Of a DNA stretch of 64,000 bases, positions 1,493-61,144 are shown one piece after another. Source of the stretch: Candidatus Moraniibacteriota bacterium. GTDB lineage: Bacteria; Patescibacteriota; Minisyncoccia; Moranbacterales; UBA1568. The stretch lies in assembly GCA_017983435.1 (NCBI GenBank), contig JAGOBM010000002.1, forward strand, positions 33,414 to 97,413, in the 5' to 3' direction. Position numbers and translations under genes: made by a program. The notes under the pieces were generated by a model. The model was given only the letters and a program-made list of their open reading frames with translations. It was not told the DNA's origin and did not search any database. Numbering within the stretch: position 1 is the stretch's first letter; every line of letters begins with the position of its first letter.

Positions 1493-3193
1493 ATGAAGCG
1501 TTTTTCAGGAGATATTTCTATCGTGCTCGGGGGTGCGGCGGGACAGGGGATACAGACGGTCGAAGCGATGCTCGTATCGGTGCTGAAGGCCGAAGGATAT
1601 CGGATTTTTGCCTGCAAAGAGTACATGTCACGCATCCGCGGGGGATCCAATTCGACCGAGATCCGCATCGGCCGCGGCAATCCGCTCGCGTATGTCGAGC
1701 GTATCGATTTTCTGCTCGCGCTCGATCAGGGTGTCATCCCGCATTTGAGAGAGCGTATCGGCAAGCAGACGATCATACTCGGGGAGAAGGACAAGGTGCA
1801 GCACGAGGGCGCGCATATCATCGATCTGCCGTTTACCAAGCTTTCAGCTGAACTCGGCAATCCGATTTTTGCTTCGACCATCGCGGTCGGCGCGGTACTC
1901 GGCATGCTCGGCGCGGAGCGGAAGCCATTTGAAGACTATCTGCGGGCGCATTTTGCTCGCAAAGGGGAAGACGTGGTGAAGAAGAACCTCGAGGCGGCTG
2001 CCAAAGGTATGGACTTCGGGAGCCATATTGCCTTTATGGAAGGGTTTGAAGTGAACCTCCAGAAAGATGAGACAGTCCGCGAGGAGCTCTTGCTCGATGG
2101 CAATACCGCTCTCGGTCTCGGAGCGATCGCGGCGGGGTGTGATTTTGCCTCATCGTATCCGATGTCTCCCGGGACCGGTGTACTGACCTATCTGGCGAGC
2201 CAGGCGCAGAAGTTCGGTATCGTCATCGATCAGGCGGAAGATGAGATCGCGGCGATCAATATTGCGATCGGTGCCTGGTATGCCGGTGCACGAGCACTCG
2301 TGACGACATCCGGCGGCGGATTCGCCCTCATGTGCGAAGGAGTGAGTCTCGCGGGCATGATTGAGACGCCCGTCGTGGTCCATATCGGACAGCGTCCAGG
2401 CCCGGCGACGGGACTCCCGACGCGTACCGAGCAGGCCGATCTCAATCTCGTGCTCTATGCCGGGCATGGCGAGTTTCCGCGGGCGATATTCGCTCCGGGT
2501 ACTCCTGCACAGGCGTTTCATGCGATGCAGCAGGCTTTCGAGGCGGCGGATGCGTATCAGATCCCGGTCTTCGTCTTGTCGGATCAGTATATGCTCGATT
2601 CCATATCGACTCTTCCGAAGGAAGATCTGGAATGTCTACCGGTAATCAAACACGTCGTCGAGACCGATGCTGCCTATCGCCGCTATGTCGTGACGGAAGA
2701 CGGAATATCGCCCCGTGGTATCCCGGGTTTCGGCCAGGGGATGGTCGGAGTCGATAGCGATGAACACGATGAGGAGGCCCATATCACCGAAAGCGCTCTG
2801 GTCCGCATCGCGATGCATGAGAAGCGTCTCCGGAAGCTCGATCTGATGAAGGAGTCCGCGCTCATGCCGGAGGAGATCGAAGCGGTAAAGGGTGCCAAGA
2901 CGCTTATCGTCACCTGGGGATCGAATCGGGGTATCCTCGAAGAGGCACTCGGCACAATCAAAGATGAGTCCGTGGCCGGCCTCCATTTCTGCCAGGTCTA
3001 CCCGCTCAATCCGAAAGCGAAGAAACTGTTTTCGAAGAAGAGAATCATTGTGATGGAGAACAACGCAGCGGGACAATTCGCCGATCTCTTGGAGCGCGAT
3101 CTCGATATCGAGGTCAGCGAGCGGATCCTGAAATATGACGGATCGCCGTATTCGGTGGAGGAGACGGTGGAGAGGCTGAAACAGCTATTGTAA
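1493..3193 (+). CDS. korA: 2-oxoacid:ferredoxin oxidoreductase, fused gamma/alpha subunit (KorA/OorA-like)
   Basis: An N-terminal gamma domain (GGAAGQGIQT...RGGSNSTEIRIG) is followed by an alpha domain (YPMSPGTGVL...TTSGGGFALM). The start was chosen at the internal ATG at 1493 because the upstream extension of the ORF is not conserved. Confidence 0.85.
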   Translation: MKRFSGDISIVLGGAAGQGIQTVEAMLVSVLKAEGYRIFACKEYMSRIRGGSNSTEIRIGRGNPLAYVERIDFLLALDQGVIPHLRERIGKQTIILGEKDKVQHEGAHIIDLPFTKLSAELGNPIFASTIAVGAVLGMLGAERKPFEDYLRAHFARKGEDVVKKNLEAAAKGMDFGSHIAFMEGFEVNLQKDETVREELLLDGNTALGLGAIAAGCDFASSYPMSPGTGVLTYLASQAQKFGIVIDQAEDEIAAINIAIGAWYAGARALVTTSGGGFALMCEGVSLAGMIETPVVVHIGQRPGPATGLPTRTEQADLNLVLYAGHGEFPRAIFAPGTPAQAFHAMQQAFEAADAYQIPVFVLSDQYMLDSISTLPKEDLECLPVIKHVVETDAAYRRYVVTEDGISPRGIPGFGQGMVGVDSDEHDEEAHITESALVRIAMHEKRLRKLDLMKESALMPEEIEAVKGAKTLIVTWGSNRGILEEALGTIKDESVAGLHFCQVYPLNPKAKKLFSKKRIIVMENNAAGQFADLLERDLDIEVSERILKYDGSPYSVEETVERLKQLL

Positions 3194-3210
3194 ATTCAAA
3201 ATTCAAAATG

Positions 3211-3630
3211 ACAAGCTCCAAATAAATCCAAATGATTCAAATTCAAAAAACAAAAATATACGATTTGGAGGAACGGACATTAGAGTATGGGAAGAGAATT
3301 ATTCATTTAAGCAGGAGTCTTCCAAAGGATGTAGCTAACGATACTATTAGCGGGCAGCTCATGCGTTCAGGGACTTCATTAGGCGCTAATTATAGAGAAG
3401 CTAATGAAACAGTAACCAAAAAAGATTTTTCTTTTCGGATGCGTATTTGTCGTAAAGAAGCAAAGGAAACGGTGTATTGGCTGCAGTTGGTGGTAGAAGC
3501 AAATCCAGATCTGGACAAGAGGGTTTCTCCGTTACTTCAAGAAACGAGGGAGTTGGTAAAAATATTCGCAGCCATTATTGAAAAATCTAAATAATTTGAT
3601 ATTTGAATTTGTAATTTATTTGGAGCTTGT
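3211..3630. mobile_element. AT-rich cassette bounded by a perfect 17-bp inverted repeat (ACAAGCTCCAAATAAAT at 3211-3227; ATTTATTTGGAGCTTGT at 3614-3630) and carrying a four-helix-bundle gene
   Basis: The inverted repeat was read directly from the sequence, and the arms extend further with imperfect matches. GC falls sharply relative to the flanking korA and korB. Confidence 0.6.
3232..3594 (+). CDS. Four-helix-bundle protein (TIGR02436, the family of 23S rRNA intervening-sequence proteins)
   Basis: YDLEERTLEYGKRIIHLSRSLPKD...SGQLMRSGTSLGANYREANE...KDFSFRMRICRKEAKETVYWLQLV matches the family signature. Confidence 0.8.
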   Translation: MIQIQKTKIYDLEERTLEYGKRIIHLSRSLPKDVANDTISGQLMRSGTSLGANYREANETVTKKDFSFRMRICRKEAKETVYWLQLVVEANPDLDKRVSPLLQETRELVKIFAAIIEKSK

Positions 3631-3656
3631 AATTTTTGATTTTAGATTTAAAACGT

Positions 3657-4520
3657 ATGATCGACAAAAAGCTCTATGATATGCCGCATGGTACGGATAT
3701 CGCTTGGTGCCAGGCCTGCGGGAACTTCCCTATCCTGACTATCGTGAAGAGCGCGCTTGCGGAGCTCGATATCCTGCCTGGATCCGTCGTCATGACTTCC
3801 GGTATCGGACAGGCTGCCAAGACCCCGCACTATCTGCACCTCAATTATTTCAACGGTCTGCATGGCCGGGCGCTCGGACCGGCGATGGCGATCAAGGCGG
3901 CGAGCCCGCAGCTGACGGTTATCGCCGAGAGCGGAGACGGCGATACCTACGGTGAGGGAGGCAATCATTTCATGCACACTATCCGCCGCAATCCGGATAT
4001 CACGAATATCGTTCACAACAACATGATCTACGGTTTGACCAAGGGGCAGGCATCGCCGACCTCAGAGAAGGGCCTGGTGACGCCGCTTCAGCCGGGAGGG
4101 GTGATTCTGGAGCCGTTCAATCCGATTCCGGTCGCGCTCTCACTCGGGGCGACCTTCGTCGCGCGTGCCTATGCGGGCAATATCCCGCAGGCGGTCGCGA
4201 TCGTGAAGGAAGCGATACAGCATAAGGGGTATGCACTCGTCGATATTTTCCAGCCCTGCGTCGTCTTCAACAAGCAGAATACCTATCAGTGGTTCATGGA
4301 ACACACCTATCTGCTCGGAGAAGAGCATGATGCGACCGATCGCGCCCTGGCCTGGAAGCTTGGTATGGATCAGGATCGGCTCGCACTCGGCGTCATCTAT
4401 CGGGAGACGGGACGACCGACCTATGAGGCACAGGTCCGTACGGGATCGGATATGCTGTTTGGACGCGAGCGCGATACCGCGCAGGTCCGGGCCCTGGTCG
4501 ATTCGTATACGAAGAAGTGA
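3657..4520 (+). CDS. korB: 2-oxoacid:ferredoxin oxidoreductase beta subunit (TPP-binding)
   Basis: CQACGNFPIL...SGIGQAAKTPHYL...GDGDTYGEGGNHF is a TPP/PFOR beta-domain pattern. The ORF begins with TTG at 3636, and the first ATG is at 3657. Confidence 0.85.
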   Translation: MIDKKLYDMPHGTDIAWCQACGNFPILTIVKSALAELDILPGSVVMTSGIGQAAKTPHYLHLNYFNGLHGRALGPAMAIKAASPQLTVIAESGDGDTYGEGGNHFMHTIRRNPDITNIVHNNMIYGLTKGQASPTSEKGLVTPLQPGGVILEPFNPIPVALSLGATFVARAYAGNIPQAVAIVKEAIQHKGYALVDIFQPCVVFNKQNTYQWFMEHTYLLGEEHDATDRALAWKLGMDQDRLALGVIYRETGRPTYEAQVRTGSDMLFGRERDTAQVRALVDSYTKK

Positions 4521-8964: not shown

Positions 8965-9070
8965 GACTTTTACTCTCAGCGGATGAAGATTTAGGATGTT
9001 TGATTCACGATTGTAGAATGAATACCGTGGTCGTCTGAAAGACGACTATTCAAAAATCAAAAATCTATAA

Positions 9071-9784
9071 TCATATATGGGAGAAGCCTTTCTTCTCGAT
9101 AGCAGCCGCCAATGCTGGACCGCCGGTAGCGACCAGGCAGCCATCTTTGATAACGAGTATTTCATCCGGGCGCATGTATTTGAGCAGCTTGGCCGAGTGA
9201 GTGATGAAGACGAGTGTCGCTTCTTTGGAGAGTGTTTTGCGCAGGAAACCGGTGATAGTCTTCAGGGCATCGACATCGACACCAGTGTCAATCTCATCGA
9301 AGAGGACGAACCGTGGCTCAAGCAGGGCGATCTGGAGCGCCTCGAGCTTCTTCTTTTCTCCTCCGGAAAATCCGTCATTGAGCGAACGTGATAAGAGCTC
9401 GGATTTTATCTTGAGCGCTTCGGCGCCTTCACGGATCTTGGCGTGCAGGGCGAATGGGTCATAGCGTTTCTCGAGCGCGAGCCGGAGGAGGTCCCGGACA
9501 GAGACTCCTTCGAGCGCAAGCGGATTCTGAAACGTCATGCTGATACCGAGCGCTGCCCGCTTGTCCGGCGAGAGCGAACGGAGATTCTTCTGGCCGACGA
9601 GGATCTTGCTCCCGCGGGCGAGCTTGAAGTCCGGGTGGCCCATGATGACGCTCGCGAGCGTCGATTTGCCTGAGCCGTTAGGTCCGAGTATAGCGTAGGT
9701 TTTGCCTGACTTGAAAGCGAAGGAAATGTCGTGGAGTATCTTCTTGCCTTCGATAGATGCGGAGAGGTGTTCGATGGAGAGCAT
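9071..9784 (-). CDS. sufC: FeS assembly ATPase SufC
   Basis: MLSIEHLSASIEGKKILHDISFAFKSGKTYAILGPNGSGKSTL carries Walker A, and LSGGEKKK... carries the ABC signature. The start was set at the internal Met that matches the SufC N-terminus. Confidence 0.9.
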   Translation of the reverse strand: MLSIEHLSASIEGKKILHDISFAFKSGKTYAILGPNGSGKSTLASVIMGHPDFKLARGSKILVGQKNLRSLSPDKRAALGISMTFQNPLALEGVSVRDLLRLALEKRYDPFALHAKIREGAEALKIKSELLSRSLNDGFSGGEKKKLEALQIALLEPRFVLFDEIDTGVDVDALKTITGFLRKTLSKEATLVFITHSAKLLKYMRPDEILVIKDGCLVATGGPALAAAIEKKGFSHI

Positions 9785-18286: not shown

Positions 18287-18676
18287 TAGTGGAGTTGATG
18301 GGAATTGCACCCATGTCCAGTCACGTTTTTCCAAAATATTCTACAAGCGTAGTCTGCTTTAGGTCCCTTCCTCTCTATGAAACAGACGAAAGAGAGCGGA
18401 AGACTGGTCTTCTGCAAAAGGCGATCGGAGGAGAAAGACGAGAAGAAAATCTCCGGACCTTCCCGAAGTATGACACCGGCGGTTCTCTATCGGGAGTCGA
18501 GGAGCCGATGGTCCGCGCGAATTAGGCGCGGGCGAAAGCGAAAGACGGAGCGAACGCCGAAGCGAACGTGGCCTTGGCCTTTGGGATGAAGTTTGCACTT
18601 ATCGGTTGATGGAAGTTTTTACGATCGTACCATCATGATCGGCTTGCCTATTTTGAAAGTACGCCCTGTCGAGTCT
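18287..18676 (-). ncRNA. ssrA: tmRNA (transfer-messenger RNA, SsrA)
   Basis: The minus-strand 5-prime end GGGGUUGUUUAGACUCGACAGGG and 3-prime end GGACAUGGGUGCAAUUCCCAUCAACUCCA(CUA) closely parallel E. coli GGGGCUGAUUCUGGAUUCGACGGG...GGACGCGGGUUCAACUCCCGCCAGCUCCACCA. The acceptor stem GGGGUUG/CAACUCC keeps the G3:U wobble. A resume-codon context UAAGU-GCA-AAC and an Ala-rich tag frame ending in UAA lie on plus 18522-18596. The gene is directly downstream of smpB. Confidence 0.8.
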
Positions 18677-18772
18677 AAACAACCCCATACCATCAAGGAT
18701 GATGGAAATTCCAAATTCCAAAGCCCAAATTCCCAGCGGAATTGTAGAGTTTGGATCTTAGAATCTGAAGAA

Positions 18773-25876: not shown

Positions 25877-28800
25877 ATGTTCAAAAAAGTCGATCCGAAA
25901 GTCAGCTTTCCGCAGCTTGAAGAAGAGACGCTCAAATACTGGGAGGAGAACAAGATCTTCGAGCAATCGGTAGCGAACCGCGAGGGTAAGCCGAAGTATA
26001 GTTTCAATGATGGGCCGCCGTTTGCGACCGGGTTGCCGCACTATGGGCATATCGTGGCGAGTGTTATCAAAGACGCCATACCGCGGTATTGGGCGATGCG
26101 CGGGCATCAGGTAGAGCGCAAGTGGGGCTGGGACTGTCATGGTCTGCCAATCGAGAATATCGCGGAGAAGGAGCTCGGTATCAAACATAAGAAAGATATC
26201 GAGGCGATGGGCGTCGCGAAGTTCAATGAGTTCTGTCGCTCCAAGGTGCTTGAGTACGCGGCCGAGTGGGAAAAGGTCATACCGCGTATCGGACGCTGGG
26301 CTGACATGAAGAACGCCTACCGTACCATGGATAAGGAATATATGGAGAGTGTGTGGTGGGTATTCAAGGAGCTCTGGGATAAAGGACTTATTTACGAGAG
26401 CTACCGTTCGATGCATGTCTGTCCGCGCTGCGAGACGACGCTCAGTCAACAGGAGGTGAGCGAGGGATATGTCGACGTGAAGGACTTATCAGTGGTCGCG
26501 AAGTTCGAGCTGGTTGGTTCTGATGTCATTCCGGCCTCCGAGCCGGAATCTAGGGACTGGATCCCGGGTCAAGCCCGGGATGACAAGAAAACATATGTCT
26601 TGGCGTGGACGACGACGCCGTGGACGCTGCCAGGCAATGTGGCTTTGGCTGTTGGGAAGGATATTGTTTACACAAAATCAAAAGTAGCTGAAATTAATGG
26701 CAATAGTACTTTTAAGTTAGGAGAGACTTATATATTTGCAAAAAATCGAGCAAAAATTGCAGCTCATGAAATATTTGGTGGAAAGTTAGGGGAGACTCAG
26801 ATTACGACTTTTGATAAAAATGATGGAGTGTTGTGTTCTGCAGTTATTGCGAATGATGATGGCTCTGAAACTCAAATTGTATTCGATTCTGTTGATATCT
26901 TTGGTGAGAATTTGCTAGGACAATCCTACAAGCCGCTGTTCGATTACTACGCCAAGGATACGACGCTTCCGAACCACGAGAATGGCTGGAAGATCTACGC
27001 GGCGGATTTTGTGACGACCGAGGATGGCACGGGTGTGGTGCATATCGCGCCGGCATTCGGCGAGGACGACATGGAACTCGGCAAGAAAGAGAATCTGCCG
27101 TTCGTGCAGCATGTGCATCTTGATGGCACGATGAAAGCCGAAGTGACGGATTTTGCGGGCCAGCCGGTGAAACCGAAGGAGGCGCCGCAGTCGATGGATG
27201 TGGAAATCATCAAATACCTCGCGCACAAAGGACTGCTCTTCTCAAAGGAGAAATACGAGCACAGCTACCCGCACTGCTGGCGCTGCGATACGCCGCTCCT
27301 CAATTACGCGACGTCGTCGTGGTTTGTTTCTGTGACGAAGATAAAAGAAAAGATGCTTGAGCTTGCCAAAGATATCCATTGGTCGCCGGAGCATATCAAG
27401 GAAGGGCGTTTCGGAAAGTGGCTCGAGGGCGCGCGCGACTGGTCTATCAGCCGGCAGCGCTATTGGGCCTCTGTGATGCCGATCTGGAAGTGCGAGTGCG
27501 GCGAGATACAGGTTTTCGGATCGATTGCTGATTTGGAGACAGCGAGCGGACAGAAAGTGGATGACCTGCATAAGCATGTCGTCGATGAGATCTCGGTACC
27601 ATGTACGAAGTGCGGCGGGACGATGAAGCGTGTCCCGGATGTGCTCGATACTTGGTTCGATAGCGGTTCGATGCCGTATGCGCAGGAGCACTATCCATTT
27701 GCGAACGAGGAACATTTCAACAAGAGCTTCCCGGCGGATTTCATCGCGGAGGGAGTCGATCAGACGCGCGCGTGGTTCTACTATCAGCACGTCATCGGCA
27801 CGGCTATCAAGGACAGCGTTGCATTCAAAAATGTCATCGTGAACGGTATCGTGCAGGGTGAAGATGGCAAGAAGATGTCGAAGAAACTCAAGAATTATCC
27901 GGATCCGATGGAAATCGTGAACAAGCACGGGGCGGACGCGCTGCGCCTGTATCTCTTGTCCTCACCGATTGTCGCAGCCGAAAATCTCAATTTCTCCGAG
28001 CGCGACCTGACCGAGACCTCGCGCAACGTGTTTCGCATGCTGTGGAATTCATACTCGTTCTTCATGACATACGCGTCGATCGATGCATGGGAGCCGAAGC
28101 AGGATGTCGAGCCGTCGGCCAATCTGCTCGACCGCTGGATTACTTCCGAGCTCCAGCTGCTCATCAAAAATCTCGATCAGTCGATGGAAGTGTACGAGTT
28201 GAACAAAGCAGCGCGCCTCTTCATGCCGTTTATCGACAATCTCTCGAACTGGTATATTCGCCGGTCGCGGGATCGCTTCTGGAAAAATGAAAATGATAAC
28301 GATAAGGAAGCTGCCTATCAGACGCTCTATGATGTGCTCGTAACGCTCTCGGAGCTCATGGCACCGTTTACACCATTCCTGTCGGAGGAAATCTATCGCA
28401 ATCTGACCGGAGAAGCATCGGTGCATCTGGCGGATTGGCCTACTAATAATGGCTCAATTGATGAATTGCTGAATGACTTGATGAAGGATGTTCGGGAAAT
28501 TGTGAGCATCGGTCTACAGAAACGAGCCGAGGCGAAGATTAAAGTAAGGCAGCCATTGAATCAAATCCGTCTCAAGTCGGATACGTACAAGAAACTTCTT
28601 GACACAGTTTCTGATCCTAAAGACAAGATGTTTCTCGAGAATATTATCTTGAGCGAGCTTAATGTGAAGGGAATTTACTTTGATGGTTCTGCAGAGGAAA
28701 ATATTGTTCTTGATATCGAGCTCACTGATGATCTCAAGCTCGAAGGCGAGATGAACGAGATCAACCGGGCTATCCAGGATGGGCGCAAGAAGGCGGGCTT

Positions 28801-28987
28801 CAATGTGGAGGACCGTATCGTGCTCGGGTATATGGGCAAAGAGAACGTTTTCCAGAAATTCGGCGATGAGATCGCCAAGAAAGTCCTCGCGACTGAGGTG
28901 AAGAATGAAGATCTCGCTGAGGCTGAGTATCGCGAAACCATCACCATTGAAGGCGAGGAATTTACATTCTCTCTCAAGCGATCATAG
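25877..28987 (+). CDS. ileS: Isoleucyl-tRNA synthetase
   Basis: It is 1036 aa with PPFATGLPHYGHI (HIGH), KMSKKLKN (KMSKS), a CP1 editing region, and a C-terminal WRCDTP...CTKCGG zinc region. Confidence 0.95.
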   Translation: MFKKVDPKVSFPQLEEETLKYWEENKIFEQSVANREGKPKYSFNDGPPFATGLPHYGHIVASVIKDAIPRYWAMRGHQVERKWGWDCHGLPIENIAEKELGIKHKKDIEAMGVAKFNEFCRSKVLEYAAEWEKVIPRIGRWADMKNAYRTMDKEYMESVWWVFKELWDKGLIYESYRSMHVCPRCETTLSQQEVSEGYVDVKDLSVVAKFELVGSDVIPASEPESRDWIPGQARDDKKTYVLAWTTTPWTLPGNVALAVGKDIVYTKSKVAEINGNSTFKLGETYIFAKNRAKIAAHEIFGGKLGETQITTFDKNDGVLCSAVIANDDGSETQIVFDSVDIFGENLLGQSYKPLFDYYAKDTTLPNHENGWKIYAADFVTTEDGTGVVHIAPAFGEDDMELGKKENLPFVQHVHLDGTMKAEVTDFAGQPVKPKEAPQSMDVEIIKYLAHKGLLFSKEKYEHSYPHCWRCDTPLLNYATSSWFVSVTKIKEKMLELAKDIHWSPEHIKEGRFGKWLEGARDWSISRQRYWASVMPIWKCECGEIQVFGSIADLETASGQKVDDLHKHVVDEISVPCTKCGGTMKRVPDVLDTWFDSGSMPYAQEHYPFANEEHFNKSFPADFIAEGVDQTRAWFYYQHVIGTAIKDSVAFKNVIVNGIVQGEDGKKMSKKLKNYPDPMEIVNKHGADALRLYLLSSPIVAAENLNFSERDLTETSRNVFRMLWNSYSFFMTYASIDAWEPKQDVEPSANLLDRWITSELQLLIKNLDQSMEVYELNKAARLFMPFIDNLSNWYIRRSRDRFWKNENDNDKEAAYQTLYDVLVTLSELMAPFTPFLSEEIYRNLTGEASVHLADWPTNNGSIDELLNDLMKDVREIVSIGLQKRAEAKIKVRQPLNQIRLKSDTYKKLLDTVSDPKDKMFLENIILSELNVKGIYFDGSAEENIVLDIELTDDLKLEGEMNEINRAIQDGRKKAGFNVEDRIVLGYMGKENVFQKFGDEIAKKVLATEVKNEDLAEAEYRETITIEGEEFTFSLKRS

Positions 28988-49546: not shown

Positions 49547-50437
49547 ATGGCGAGTGCACGAGACATCCGAAGACGCATCAAGGGCGTGAAAGCCACCGGG
49601 AAAATCACCCGGGCTATGGAGATGATTTCGGCTGTCAAAATGCGCAAAGCCGTCTCGGCGGTACTCGCGATCCGGCCGTATGCCGAGAGCGTGATCCAGG
49701 TGCTGCACCAGCTCTCGGTGGTCGGGGAGGATCATCCTCTGCTCGCGGTACGCGAGGTGAAGAAGGAGCTCTATGTCGTCATCACATCGAACCGCGGTCT
49801 GTGCGGAGCCTTCAATGCGCAGATCACCAAGCGGGTGCGGCAGATCCTGCGCGAGGATACCGATCGCGAGGCTTCGTTCATCACCATCGGCAAGAAGGGG
49901 GATGCGGCGGTACGGCGGCTCGGAGGCGATATCGTGGCTTCATTCCCGGACGTACTGGGGACCCCGACGGCCGAGCTTATGCGTCCGATCGCCAAGATCC
50001 TGATCGAGGCTTTCGAATCGAAGCAGATCGACCGCGTCGTCATGGTCTATACGGATTTCAAATCCATGCTGTCGCAGGAGGTGAAAGTGCGGGCGCTCCT
50101 GCCGGTGATCGAGAAAGATGTCCAGAAGGCGCTCAATGAGATCGAGCACGGCGCTATCAAGGAGCGGGTGATGCATGCCGAATACGTGATCGAACCTTCA
50201 GCCAAGAAGGTGCTTTGGAAGATGATCCCGCGTCTCCTCGAGATGGAGCTCTACCATGCGGTGCTCGAGAGCAATGCCTCGCAGGAAGCAGCCCGGATGA
50301 TGGCGATGCGCAGCGCGACGGATGCGGGCAAGGAGATGGCTGCTGACCTGACGCTCGCGTACAATCAGATCCGCCAGTCGAAGATCACCCAGGAAATCGC
50401 CGAGCTCTCAGCGGGTATGGCTGCCGTTTCGCGGTAG
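49547..50437 (+). CDS. atpG: F0F1 ATP synthase subunit gamma
   Basis: MASARDIRRRIKGVKATGKITRAMEMISAVKMRKA is the canonical gamma N-terminus. Confidence 0.9.
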   Translation: MASARDIRRRIKGVKATGKITRAMEMISAVKMRKAVSAVLAIRPYAESVIQVLHQLSVVGEDHPLLAVREVKKELYVVITSNRGLCGAFNAQITKRVRQILREDTDREASFITIGKKGDAAVRRLGGDIVASFPDVLGTPTAELMRPIAKILIEAFESKQIDRVVMVYTDFKSMLSQEVKVRALLPVIEKDVQKALNEIEHGAIKERVMHAEYVIEPSAKKVLWKMIPRLLEMELYHAVLESNASQEAARMMAMRSATDAGKEMAADLTLAYNQIRQSKITQEIAELSAGMAAVSR

Positions 50438-50616
50438 CGCGACGATTGTAGATTTAAGATTTTCGATTTTAGAATAAATACTCAGGTGTCATTCCGAGCG
50501 TAGTCGAGGAATCTAATGAACAGTAGATTTCTCGAGAGGCTCAGAATCAGTTGTTTGGAAAAAAGAAAAGCCCCGGCGCAGTTGCGACGAGGCTGATAGG
50601 TTGGCTAAGTTGCCGA

Positions 50617-50835
50617 TTACTTTTCTGGTTTTCGTGGTTGATTTTCGAATAGCCGGATAATGTTGGTGAAAAAAGTACCAACGAGGATGACGGAAATAAT
50701 TCCGATAACAACTATTCGAAACCAGAAGACTTCTGAAGTGGTGCTGAAAGCATGCAGGAAGATGAGTATCGGTCCAAAAAGAAGACTGGAAATAAAGACG
50801 TAGCCAGCGCTTAAGCAGTACAAGAACGATTTCAT
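50617..50835 (-). CDS. Small membrane protein (72 aa, 2 TM) in the AT-rich insertion
   Basis: It is a hydrophobic ORF on the opposite strand within the low-GC segment 50440-51547. Confidence 0.35.
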   Translation of the reverse strand: MKSFLYCLSAGYVFISSLLFGPILIFLHAFSTTSEVFWFRIVVIGIISVILVGTFFTNIIRLFENQPRKPEK

Positions 50836-50950
50836 GGCAGTTCTCCCGTTGGTTGTTAAGAGTACAAATTAATATGATAGCATAAAAAATAGAAAAAGTC
50901 AATATTGTATAACGTTATTAACCAGTATTTTCCTTTAATCAAGCTAAAAT

Positions 50951-51478
50951 ATGCCGGAAAAGGCAGCGAAAAATCTGGTAGCGATTCCGAATGAGCGCAT
51001 CGAAAAGCGGATTTTTTGGCTGCGCGGGGAAAAGGTGATGCTTGATGCCGATTTGGCAGAGTTGTATGATGTATTGACCGGAAACCTGAACAAAGCGGTC
51101 AAGCGTAATATCGATCGGTTCCCATCCGATTTTATGTTTCAGTTGAACAAGGCGGAATTTGATGGTTTGATGTTCCAAAATGGAATATCAAAAGGGCGAG
51201 GCGGGAAAAGAAAGCTGCCGTACGCTTTTACCGAGCAGGGTGTGGCGATGCTCTCGAGCGTATTGAAGAGCCAGCGGGCAGTAGCAGTGAATATCCAAAT
51301 TGTCCGGACATTCGTAGAGCTGCGGAAGATGCTCGCAACGCATGAAGGACTGAGGAAGAAGATCGAGGCGATGGAACGGAAGTATGACAAACAGTTCAAG
51401 GCGGTATTCGATGTGTTGCGGCAACTCTTGAAAGAAGAAACGGAGCCGAAACAGAAGATCGGATTTGCTATAAAACAG

Positions 51479-51481
<3 letters not shown>
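50951..51481 (+). CDS. ORF6N-domain (KilA-N-related) DNA-binding protein
   Basis: LRGEKVMLDADLAELYDV...NKAVKRNIDRFPSDFMFQLNKAEF...GKRKLPYAFTEQGVAMLSSVLKSQRAVAVNIQIVRTFVELRK is the characteristic ORF6N signature. Its stop codon lies inside a GAATA-family repeat. Confidence 0.75.
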
Positions 51482-52942
<1,461 letters not shown>

Positions 52943-60240: not shown

Positions 60241-61014
60241 ATGTATACTAGCCCTATGGAAAAACGATGGAACATTATCGGGGGATTGGTGTTGGCGGCT
60301 TGTCTCGTAGGCGCTGCTTGGGTATGGAACACGCGACCTGTCGGGACGGTAGTATTGGAAAATGGCAGCGCGGAAGGCATCCAGGAGATGGCTATCGGAA
60401 CTGAAGTGGCGGAGACGACCCCTGATGAGCCAGCGGTCGTGCCATCGCCAGAGATCGAGAAGCCGACCCCGAAAGCACCGGAGGAAAAGACAGGAACGGA
60501 AAAGCCGGAAGAGAAAGCTGCTCCGTCACCGACGACTGCTCCTTCGAAATTCAAGGTGATTGAGCGGCGAGTGAATTTTGGGTTTGGTGCGGCGGATCGA
60601 AAAGCGAAAGACATCGATACGATCGTGTTGCATTCCTCATACAACAATCAGGGAGGAGACCGGTACTCGGTCGACACAGTCATCGGTATCTGGAAGAGTT
60701 ACGACGTCGCGCCGCACTATCTGGTCGATCGGAAGGGGAATGCCTACCGGCTGGTCGATGAGAGCGATATCGCGTATCATGCGGGAGTATCGGAAATGAA
60801 GGACGGTCGGACGAATGTGAACGCTTTTTCGATCGGGATCGAGATACTGAATGCGGAGGATGACGACTATACGGACGCGGAATACGAGGCTATCCGGGAT
60901 CTGATCGCGGAGCTCAAGCAGACATATCCGATCAAATATGTCGTCGGGCACGATGATATTGCTCCCGGCAGAAAGACCGATCCGTGGAATTTTGATTGGA
61001 AACACATTCGTTGA
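60241..61014 (+). CDS. Membrane-anchored N-acetylmuramoyl-L-alanine amidase (Amidase_2/PGRP domain)
   Basis: An N-terminal TM segment and a Pro/Glu/Lys linker are followed by IDTIVLHSS...AYHAG...GHDDIAPGRKTDPWNFDW, the amidase_2 Zn-ligand pattern. Confidence 0.85.
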   Translation: MYTSPMEKRWNIIGGLVLAACLVGAAWVWNTRPVGTVVLENGSAEGIQEMAIGTEVAETTPDEPAVVPSPEIEKPTPKAPEEKTGTEKPEEKAAPSPTTAPSKFKVIERRVNFGFGAADRKAKDIDTIVLHSSYNNQGGDRYSVDTVIGIWKSYDVAPHYLVDRKGNAYRLVDESDIAYHAGVSEMKDGRTNVNAFSIGIEILNAEDDDYTDAEYEAIRDLIAELKQTYPIKYVVGHDDIAPGRKTDPWNFDWKHIR

Positions 61015-61144
61015 TTTTCGATTTTCGATGTTTGATTTTAGAATCCTCTTTCCAAAAGGAGTCAAAAAAATATTATTCTATCCTTTCTTGTGGCTCTGAG
61101 ATTCCAAAATCCAGAATCTAATATCCAGAATCATCTCAAAGAGT

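Follow-up and report, generated by a model that had tools for sequence, protein, structure and literature searches.

The closest described counterparts of the element presented here are the intervening sequences (IVSs) of 23S rRNA, which are known from Leptospira, Coxiella burnetii, Xanthomonas, and Brucella. The IVS of Coxiella is 428 nt long, harbors tandem heptamers before the ATG of its S23p gene, and has a 28-bp terminal stem that is cut by RNase III in vitro, with ends in mid-stem (PMC4990558). Open reading frames (ORFs) of the same protein family, PF05635, are found in rRNA insertions of bacteria of the Candidate Phyla Radiation (PMC11270868). The present analysis concerns a window of 64,000 nt (mean GC 0.54), the whole stretch analyzed, from a contig of a Candidatus Moraniibacteriota bacterium. 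In this window, a 460-bp cassette with a gene for a four-helix-bundle protein of this family splits korA from korB, which encode the alpha and beta subunits of a 2-oxoacid:ferredoxin oxidoreductase. An earlier annotation of the window, referred to below as the original prediction, took the insert for a small mobile or selfish cassette bounded by an inverted repeat. We consider it probable that the cassette is an ORF-bearing member of a dispersed family that is framed by paired inverted heptamer arrays and that carries the design of an rRNA IVS into the junctions of protein operons. It has the appearance of a mobile element of a kind not yet described.

The likeness to 23S rRNA IVSs concerns several features. 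A PF05635/S23p ORF of about 120 aa is located in the loop, the termini are complementary and could form a long stem, heptamers lie just before the ATG, and the size is about 430-460 nt. Both kinds of element are patchy in occurrence and exist in ORF-less versions, and expression depends, or in the case of the cassette would depend, on read-through from the host (PMC4990558, PMC11270868). The original prediction had set the insert apart from rRNA elements, but its anatomy (arms, heptamers, and PF05635 ORF) matches that of the Coxiella IVS (PMC4990558). A number of differences can also be noted. The cassette lies in an mRNA operon between protein genes and not in helix 25 or 45 of 23S rRNA, no rRNA signature motif was found in 80 related loci, and Rfam returned no rRNA gene in the window, tmRNA being the sole match. 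The ORF of the cassette is under strong purifying selection, in contrast to the Coxiella ORF, which is in decay and probably not translated. RNase III excision, established for the rRNA elements, would extend to the cassette by analogy. Because the defining rRNA location is lacking, the cassette is not filed as a 23S IVS but as an IVS-type design in mRNA operons.

Outside rRNA, the same family is known from orphan genes annotated as 'four helix bundle' or 'S23 ribosomal protein', notably in Bacteroidota and cyanobacteria (e.g. BT_0352, structure 2RLD), which are likewise wedged in operons. Such a gene lies between cmr3 and cmr2 in Pleurocapsa (PMC3936711), and another between the guanylate kinase gene and nadD in Flavobacterium (PMC5524665). 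The searchable papers that report these genes read them as linked to their neighbors or as phage-related, and describe no inverted heptamer arrays, empty sites, or miniatures. The PF05635 family was termed functionally uncharacterized in 2024 (PMC11270868), and the searchable literature assigns no function to the window protein and gives no account of these cassettes.

The cassette runs from TAAAT (3191) to ATTTA (3650). Its first three bases are the korA stop codon TAA (3191-3193), and 6 nt separate its right end from the korB ATG; by its position it lacks a promoter of its own, and it points in the same direction as the host operon. The perfect 17-bp inverted repeat with imperfect extension reported in the original prediction is confirmed, and the repeat finder extends it to arms of 40 nt, 85% complementary and 386 nt apart (3188-3227 and 3614-3653). 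The true unit, 3191-3650, is larger than the segment first delimited, 3211-3630. When up to 3 mismatches are allowed, the 17-mer occurs at two sites only in the window (3211-3227 and 3614-3630); shuffled sequence yields 0.06 matches on average, and none of 100 shuffles reaches 2. The very low GC content of the segment was also borne out, with values of 0.32-0.41 across 3101-3700 (200-nt intervals) against 0.54 for the window, of which this is the deepest GC trough. Scans for promoters and terminators on the + strand inside the cassette gave nothing meaningful, and Rfam, at gathering and permissive thresholds, holds no family for the arms or the cassette. An identical protein is recorded from a Candidatus Moranbacteria metagenome-assembled genome (MAG; GCA_017999575.1) and from several metagenome assemblies, in the korA/korB context every time.

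Both arms are heptamer arrays. The left arm is composed of AAATTCA, AAATTCA, AAATGAC, AAGCTCC, and AAATAAA, followed by TCCAA and the ATG, and the right arm is the complement of a similar array. Arm statistics were computed from the sequences before the ATG and after the stop codon of 81 related cassettes. Autocorrelation is strong at lags 7, 14, and 21 (at lag 7, z = 19 on the left and 27 on the right), and 7 is the best period in 60 of the 81. Upstream arms are poor in G (0.10), downstream arms in C (0.07), and the A-rich periodicity extends into the first ~8 codons, which encode a variable N-terminus, disordered in the structure model. In the cassettes most similar to that of the window, hereafter type A, both arms hold one consensus, AAATTCAAAATTCAAAATTACAAGTTCCAAATAAAT, with near-invariant A-tracts separated by 2-3 variable bases. 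An identical 38-nt leader is found in L008, L014, L024, L025, and L034 (L numbers designate related cassette or kor loci from other genomes and metagenomes, the scan covering such loci). No Shine-Dalgarno sequence precedes the cassette ATG, which is uninformative because such motifs are scarce in this genome, a rough count giving 4 among 44 long ORFs.

At the RNA level, the two arms are predicted to pair. In the fold of 3170-3670 (minimum free energy, MFE, -119.8 kcal/mol; z = -3.98), 3191-3227 pairs with 3614-3650 and an inner stem joins 3234-3246 to 3599-3611, so that the ORF is enclosed; the stem is present in both the MFE and the centroid structures. The duplex of the two flanks of the window cassette reaches -34.1 kcal/mol. 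For the 81 cassettes, the mean is -28.7 kcal/mol with their own flank, -21.0 with that of another cassette, and -14.9 with shuffled sequence, and the alignment score of own arms is 37 versus 24 for cross pairs. Within type A, own arms match at 29.5 of 36 positions and arms of other cassettes at 27.1, a small gain (p = 0.0006). A trivial explanation would be that an ordinary orphan gene lies in an AT-rich spacer whose inverted repeat arose by chance. AT-rich low complexity by itself does yield the cross-pair score of 24 and a duplex of -21 kcal/mol, but own-arm scores lie above both the cross and the shuffled scores, and the 17-mer pair arose in 0 of 100 shuffles. The probability of this explanation is negligible, as the recurrence of the same arms with the same gene in many genomes already refutes it.

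The 120-aa protein is a member of PF05635/TIGR02436, in agreement with the original prediction: it scores 76.7 bits against TIGR02436 (cut-off 24) and 55.3 bits against PF05635 (cut-off 33.8), its sole Pfam match, and the genes on either side match TIGR03710 (korA) and TIGR02177 (korB). Its AlphaFold2 model (pLDDT 91.4) is an up-and-down four-helix bundle with helices at residues 13-28, 34-59, 63-90, and 92-119. Foldseek aligns the model to 2RLD (BT_0352, five chains) with TM-scores of 0.78-0.86, to 2GSC (Xcc0516) with 0.66-0.85, and to the Avd protein of diversity-generating retroelements (DGRs), alone (4DWL) or in the DGR ribonucleoprotein (8UB7), with 0.55-0.57; the sequence match to 2RLD has E = 9e-22. 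Xcc0516 is described as five four-helix bundles in a title cited in PMC10053308 and PMC3936711. The RxxxSxxxNxxE motif of Zhang et al. 2014, after Lin et al. 2006 (quoted in PMC3936711), is present as R45-S49-N53-E56 in RSGTSLGANYRE and is invariant across 32 relatives, the leading G of the published motif being shifted by one residue in the window protein. No catalytic domain was recognized in the ORF with Pfam, NCBIfam, PADLOC, or PHROGs, and the window protein matches no defense-system family of PADLOC and no phage family of PHROGs, the latter giving an Avd match for the protein of L107 only. No relative was found in a scan of viral contigs with the protein alignment. We propose that the protein most likely binds the heptamer arrays, because it is homologous to Avd, has pentameric relatives, and is encoded between arms made of repeats.

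The state of the korA/korB junction varies among relatives. The original prediction had proposed to look for an empty site, and one is found in L105, a locus recovered by a metagenome scan with KorB (KorB 93% identical to that of the window, KorA C-terminus 89%). There, the korA TAA is followed by 11 nt (GATACACGGCT) and the korB ATG, in place of 463 nt. The korB leader AAACGT arrives with the cassette and is missing from this empty site. In distant relatives without an insert, korA and korB overlap (ATGA) or are separated by up to 20 nt. The slot is occupied in L104 (KorB 99%), in L171 (75%), and in L007, L008, L014, and L017 (70-85%), but empty in L108-L112 (about 70%), and the proteins of same-slot cassettes are 77-93% identical to the window protein. 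In L107, whose KorA and KorB are 81% and 85% identical to those of the window, the slot is held by a gene of a different PF05635 subfamily (2060-2500; 128 aa, 2e-39, SNIAEGFGR type), with arms of reversed polarity, T/G-rich upstream and A/C-rich downstream. A glyoxalase-family gene lies in the junction of L122 (2009-2476), and the korA/korB spacers of L124, L130, and L131 (about 2450-2490) contain a solo G-poor heptamer array (AATAATC repeated), the gene being absent. The alternation of empty and occupied slots implies that the junction gained or lost such cassettes more than once. L104 is in addition a mosaic over 200-840, since its KorB is 99% identical to that of the window while its KorA C-terminus and left arm resemble the L017 lineage, a pattern suggestive of a recombination event whose breakpoint lies within or close to the cassette.

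The type-A insertion in this junction is nevertheless old, not recent. KorA of the other occupied genomes is 62-81% identical to that of the window and KorB 70-85%, and in the comparison of orthologous slots dS has reached saturation in korA, korB, and the cassette gene alike. The dN of the cassette gene (0.06-0.16) is the lowest of the three. Its protein, more conserved than KorA or KorB, is under strong purifying selection. This age and conservation do not agree with the merely tolerated passenger of the original prediction. The GC content at third codon positions (GC3) of the cassette gene is 0.29-0.46, while that of the hosts spans 0.34-0.72; as a neutral passenger this old would by now resemble its host in composition, the AT-richness of the cassette is being maintained in some way. 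Conservation of the insert across a broad clade with host-like codon usage had been named beforehand as evidence against mobility: the slot is indeed conserved across a broad clade, whereas codon usage is not host-like (GC3 0.34 vs 0.67-0.72). The tree of the four-helix-bundle protein is mildly incongruent with that of KorA/KorB, the window and L017 being the nearest host pair and the farthest cassette pair; this mismatch could be explained by rate variation and is not used as evidence.

Conservation above that of KorA and KorB with saturated dS, a slot kept across a deep clade, and a single copy in 64 kb would also fit a domesticated host gene, i.e. a cellular nucleic-acid-binding factor whose regulatory sites are the arrays (autoregulation plus a regulon) and whose positions result from ordinary shuffling. 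The spacers of L124, L130, and L131, with an array and no gene, can be read in the same way. We regard this explanation as possible, if doubtful: the site is empty in a genome with 93% KorB identity, another subfamily occupies the same slot in L107, and the AT-rich composition has never been ameliorated to that of the host.

A dispersed family, as we propose, is supported by the wide distribution of the cassette beyond korA/korB. When 1.84 billion cluster representatives were scanned, 8,799 clusters were retrieved at E <= 0.001 (clusters at 50% identity reachable from the window protein alone) and 1,945 at E <= 1e-10. About 1,900 proteins are at least 66% identical, nearly all from Patescibacteria, and those at 66-73% identity occupy other slots, where the arms are the same and the 38-nt leader frequently recurs behind the upstream stop codon. 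According to tblastx of the flanks, the 18 type-A loci, from Patescibacteria, represent at least 11 unrelated contexts (Table 1). So many unrelated slots for one closely related protein type argue against the domesticated gene. Distant subfamilies with the same layout and different heptamers (e.g. AATAACC) are found in Omnitrophota, Nitrospirota, Desulfobacterota, Ignavibacteria, and others; in L054, one of them splits the genes for the 2Fe-2S and molybdopterin subunits of an oxidoreductase. A polysaccharide operon of the Moraniibacteriota (L051) harbors two cassettes of different subfamilies (1112-1622 and 2931-3402), in the order GT2, four-helix bundle, UDP-glucose dehydrogenase, four-helix bundle, GT1. 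Each has its own arm sequence, so the arms belong to the cassette and not to the genome, and this arrangement too is unexpected for a domesticated gene.

Both neighbors are oriented in the same direction as the cassette gene in 52 loci and in the opposite direction in 5, which has a probability of ~6e-11 under a fair coin (binomial, own arithmetic). The typical gaps around the gene, 61 nt upstream and 76 nt downstream, mean that the arms fill the intercistronic space. Arms and gene travel as a whole unit that fills the space from one stop codon to the next start codon.

Table 1. Coordinates of the window features, of the ORF-less miniatures, and slots of type-A cassettes
Feature	Locus	Position	Strand	Basis or remark
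Whole cassette (left arm, four-helix-bundle ORF, right arm)	Window	3191-3650	+	Extended inverted repeat; comparison with the empty junction of L105; ends recur in other slots
Left (5') arm	Window	3191-3231	+	G-poor heptamer array directly before ATG; heptamer periodicity; arm consensus kept across slots
Left 17-bp core copy, ACAAGCTCCAAATAAAT, alpha-type end	Window	3211-3227	+	Repeat finder
Four-helix-bundle ORF, 120 aa	Window	3232-3594	+	TIGR02436/PF05635 profile matches; AlphaFold2; Foldseek; dN/dS
Right (3') arm	Window	3595-3650	+	C-poor heptamer array complementary to left arm; stops 6 nt short of korB ATG
Right 17-bp core copy, ATTTATTTGGAGCTTGT	Window	3614-3630	+	Exact reverse complement of left core
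korA, 2-oxoacid:ferredoxin oxidoreductase alpha subunit	Window	1493-3193	+	TIGR03710, 1.4e-183; start 1493 agrees with homologues (MKRFSGDIS)
korB, oxidoreductase beta subunit	Window	3657-4520	+	TIGR02177, 1.3e-93; ATG 3657 agrees with homologues
ORF-less miniatures	L007	6543-6623 and 7946-8031		suf-operon junctions
ORF-less miniatures	L014	5772-5843 and 6783-6855		suf-operon junctions
Type-A slot, ruvA/ruvB	L023-L025
Type-A slot, CCA-adding enzyme/dnaN
Type-A slot, flippase/glycosyltransferase (GT2)
Type-A slot, endonuclease III/endonuclease III
Type-A slot, 3' of mreB
Type-A slot, 5' of AbiEii gene
Type-A slot, inside DGR operons

Short derivatives of the cassette exist in two relatives, L007 and L014, in which the suf operon adjoins korB. 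The 11-mer core TCCAAATAAAT and the full 17-mer occur there also as inverted pairs just 50-64 nt apart, within miniatures of about 125 bp that are composed of two arms and a short loop without ORF, two per relative within 4 kb. The recurrence of the repeat that was originally expected is therefore found in relatives, where the 17-mer is exact in the miniatures, and not within the window. In the window, the SufS/NifU junction, which bears a miniature in these relatives, is no longer than 6 nt; that of L017 measures 22 nt. In L007 and L014, the alpha arm overlaps the 3' end of the SufS gene and provides its TAA stop, thereby rewriting the C-terminus of the host protein. Two ends can be distinguished: the alpha end, ...AAAATTACAAG[C/T]TCCAAATAAAT, and the beta end, ...AAAATCT[C/T]AATTTCCAAATAAAT (read as reverse complement). 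Relative to the host transcript, alpha lies upstream and beta downstream in ORF-bearing copies and miniatures alike, as would be the case if the miniatures arose from the cassette by internal deletion. Cassette and miniatures of one genome share end variants (ATTGAGATTTTG in L007 versus ATTAAGATTTTG in the L014 miniatures), suggesting exchange or derivation after the two lineages split. The right end of the window cassette has turned from the beta type usual in most relatives to alpha, and this is what makes its 17-mer repeat perfect. As the ends are homogenized in the window and swapped in L104, the arms exchange sequence. Retention of both cassette ends in miniatures is a further point against the domesticated gene. 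Taken with the empty L105 junction, the other subfamily in L107, the at least 11 junctions, and the constant AT-richness, the miniatures uphold the original prediction of a small mobile cassette in kind.

Correia elements of Neisseria are small and have terminal inverted repeats, lie in operon spacers, and occur in many short copies, and the hairpin of their transcript is a substrate of RNase III. They have TA target duplications and no ORF. Unlike these miniature inverted-repeat transposable elements (MITEs), the cassette exists in an ORF-bearing form, shows no duplication, has arms made of heptamer arrays, and keeps a fixed orientation to transcription. It resembles MITEs in its terminal inverted repeats and differs in that the ORF-bearing copy encodes no transposase. 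As to dispersed copies, short derivatives that share its ends occur in L007 and L014, and no second core copy is present in this window. An alternative would accordingly be a DNA-level terminal-inverted-repeat element whose arms bind a recombinase or transposase encoded elsewhere, or the protein itself with a host enzyme, the RNA stem being incidental. Two distinct conserved ends of fixed polarity in ORF-bearing and miniature copies form a classic autonomous/non-autonomous pattern, and the patchy occupancy, the swapping or homogenization of end variants in L104 and the window, and arm mismatches that lack a G-U bias all agree with it. We consider it unlikely all the same, given that target-site duplications are absent, that the cassettes examined neither contain nor adjoin a recombinase domain, that strong co-orientation with host transcription is unexpected for simple cut-and-paste, and that the arms always fill the stop-to-start space exactly. 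An integron cassette was also considered and rejected: no integrase lies in the vicinity, and the ORF has repeats on either side instead of a single 3' attC.

Another comparison is with the accessory protein of DGRs. The Avd pentamer binds nucleic acid and reverse transcriptase (RT) (PMC10053308). The window protein has the same four-helix-bundle fold, and a few type-A cassettes lie in or beside DGR operons (L027 1862-5664; L015 1758-4369, and L016), while that of L070 (18-338) has an RT fragment 2.6 kb away. The order in L027 is a target gene with a Fib_succ_major domain, the four-helix-bundle gene, bAvd, the template region, and RT. The proximity of cassettes to DGRs, 3 of ~80 loci having an RT within 3 kb, may be above chance. 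Since the family is homologous to Avd (Foldseek 4DWL and 8UB7; PMC10053308), the gene could be taken for an orphan or accessory Avd, possibly copied via RNA by the RT of a DGR. This is very improbable: in the window, tblastn with two DGR RTs and two bAvd found neither RT nor Avd, and there is no template or variable repeat; no more than 3 of ~80 loci have an RT so near, and the DGRs there carry a bAvd of their own (PF22296); and the window protein matches PF05635 only, its TM-score to Avd (0.55-0.57) lying below that to 2RLD (0.78-0.86).

Heptamer arrays are not confined to the cassette. The window contains 16 heptamer-periodic arrays against 0.1 in shuffles, most of them intergenic (arrays at, among others, 4931, 9045, 17554, 18702, 21914, 22325, 29004, 33740, 38806, 41287, 44470, 49466, 50443, 51517, and 61008), and of at least 2 sequence types, xAAAATC/CAAAATT and GAATATG/ATATTCC. 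Among them are inverted pairs without an ORF that fold weakly, such as 61008-61140 and 8995-9078, the latter flanking a GC-rich hairpin. The arms of the cassette are therefore part of a broader class of heptamer arrays found between cistrons. Array density per kb is 0.19 in the flanks of 80 gene-bearing genome loci, 0.028 in kor loci without the gene, and 0.003 in shuffled sequence, the contrast between the first two being confounded by taxonomy. The mostly intergenic arrays and their higher density where the gene is present would suit the regulon of a domesticated host factor, the taxonomic confounding counting against this use of the density.

Further observations were made in the window. 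Between atpG, which ends at 50437, and atpD, whose ATG is at 51557, an AT-rich insert (50438-51556) interrupts a second essential operon. The insert contains an ORF6N-domain gene (50951-51481; PF10543, 7.7e-33) and a membrane-like ORF on the reverse strand (50617-50835), and is bounded by heptamer arrays at 50443-50473 and 51480-51544, the latter with 14-mer direct repeats and a palindrome. The 9-mer AAACGTATG, start codon included, precedes both korB (3651-3659) and atpD (51551-51559), each time just 3' of an insert; it has 3 copies in the window versus 0.14 expected and is absent from the empty korA/korB site of L105. A CCAAATT-type array (18702-18735) adjoins the tmRNA gene (18287-18686, - strand; Rfam RF00023, 110.8 bits). 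Finally, GC content drops to 0.35-0.39 at 26600-26900 within the ORF of isoleucyl-tRNA synthetase (25877-28987), which may be an inserted domain.

For the preferred reading, an IVS-type cassette in a protein operon, the RNA-pairing results and the Coxiella precedent suggest the following scheme. The cassette would be transcribed by read-through from korA. Its arms would then pair in the RNA as an A/U-rich duplex of about 40-55 bp, looping out the ORF and bringing the korA stop codon next to the korB start codon. RNase III would cut this duplex, as it does in rRNA IVSs, and cleavage would free the mRNA of the four-helix-bundle protein and separate korA from korB, each on an RNA that ends in a hairpin.

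Several points weigh against this scheme or against mobility of the cassette. Transcription, stem formation, and cleavage are all steps that we infer. The complementarity of the arms is mostly due to their sharing one consensus, with little arm-specific covariation. Arm mismatches comprise 79 G-U and 83 A-C, and this test for selection at the RNA level shows no asymmetry, so that nothing places the constraint on the sense RNA rather than on DNA. The 17-mer core carries 2-4 mismatches in several orthologous copies. Given that arrays of other types are common between genes, the arms could in part be a general feature of such genomes. A tblastn search with an E. coli query found no RNase III gene in the window, a result that is uninformative on the rest of the genome. 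As to movement, no recombinase domain is recognizable in or beside the cassettes examined, and no target-site duplication was found. The hexamers AAAATG and AATTTTTG, singled out in the original prediction as candidate flanks, lie inside the extended arms, and comparison of the occupied window with the empty L105 reveals no repeated flank. The 64-kb window holds no second copy of the 17-mer core or of the four-helix-bundle gene. Finally, no near-identical cassettes were found in clearly different slots of one genome, which leaves recent movement without support; the closest pair within a MAG (L028/L038, 93% identical in nucleotides) lies at contig ends and may be one locus in two strains.

A more far-reaching version, which we hold to be improbable, unites protein and heptamer arrays in one self-contained system that would constitute a new class of operon-dwelling element and the source of rRNA IVSs. 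The pentamer would recognize tandem heptamers, ORF-bearing cassettes would be autonomous and the intergenic ORF-less inverted arrays non-autonomous, and spread or maintenance would be ensured by an RNA- or array-binding protein instead of a transposase, possibly with a reverse transcriptase acting in trans. Five is the number of heptamers in the left arm, both in the window and in the five other type-A copies that have the 38-nt leader, and it is also the subunit count of the homologues with solved structures.

What 23S rRNA IVSs and their conserved ORF do has been an open question since the early 1990s. The presence of IVS-like copies in ordinary operons recasts it: the subject is no longer a curiosity of rRNA but a general element found at intercistronic junctions. 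Such cassettes split the subunit genes of essential complexes, as exemplified by korAB, ruvAB, and the 2Fe-2S/molybdopterin pair, and can give upstream genes new stop codons and C-terminal tails. They can also mislead annotation based on guilt by association, for example where PF05635 genes are found inside cas or DGR loci.

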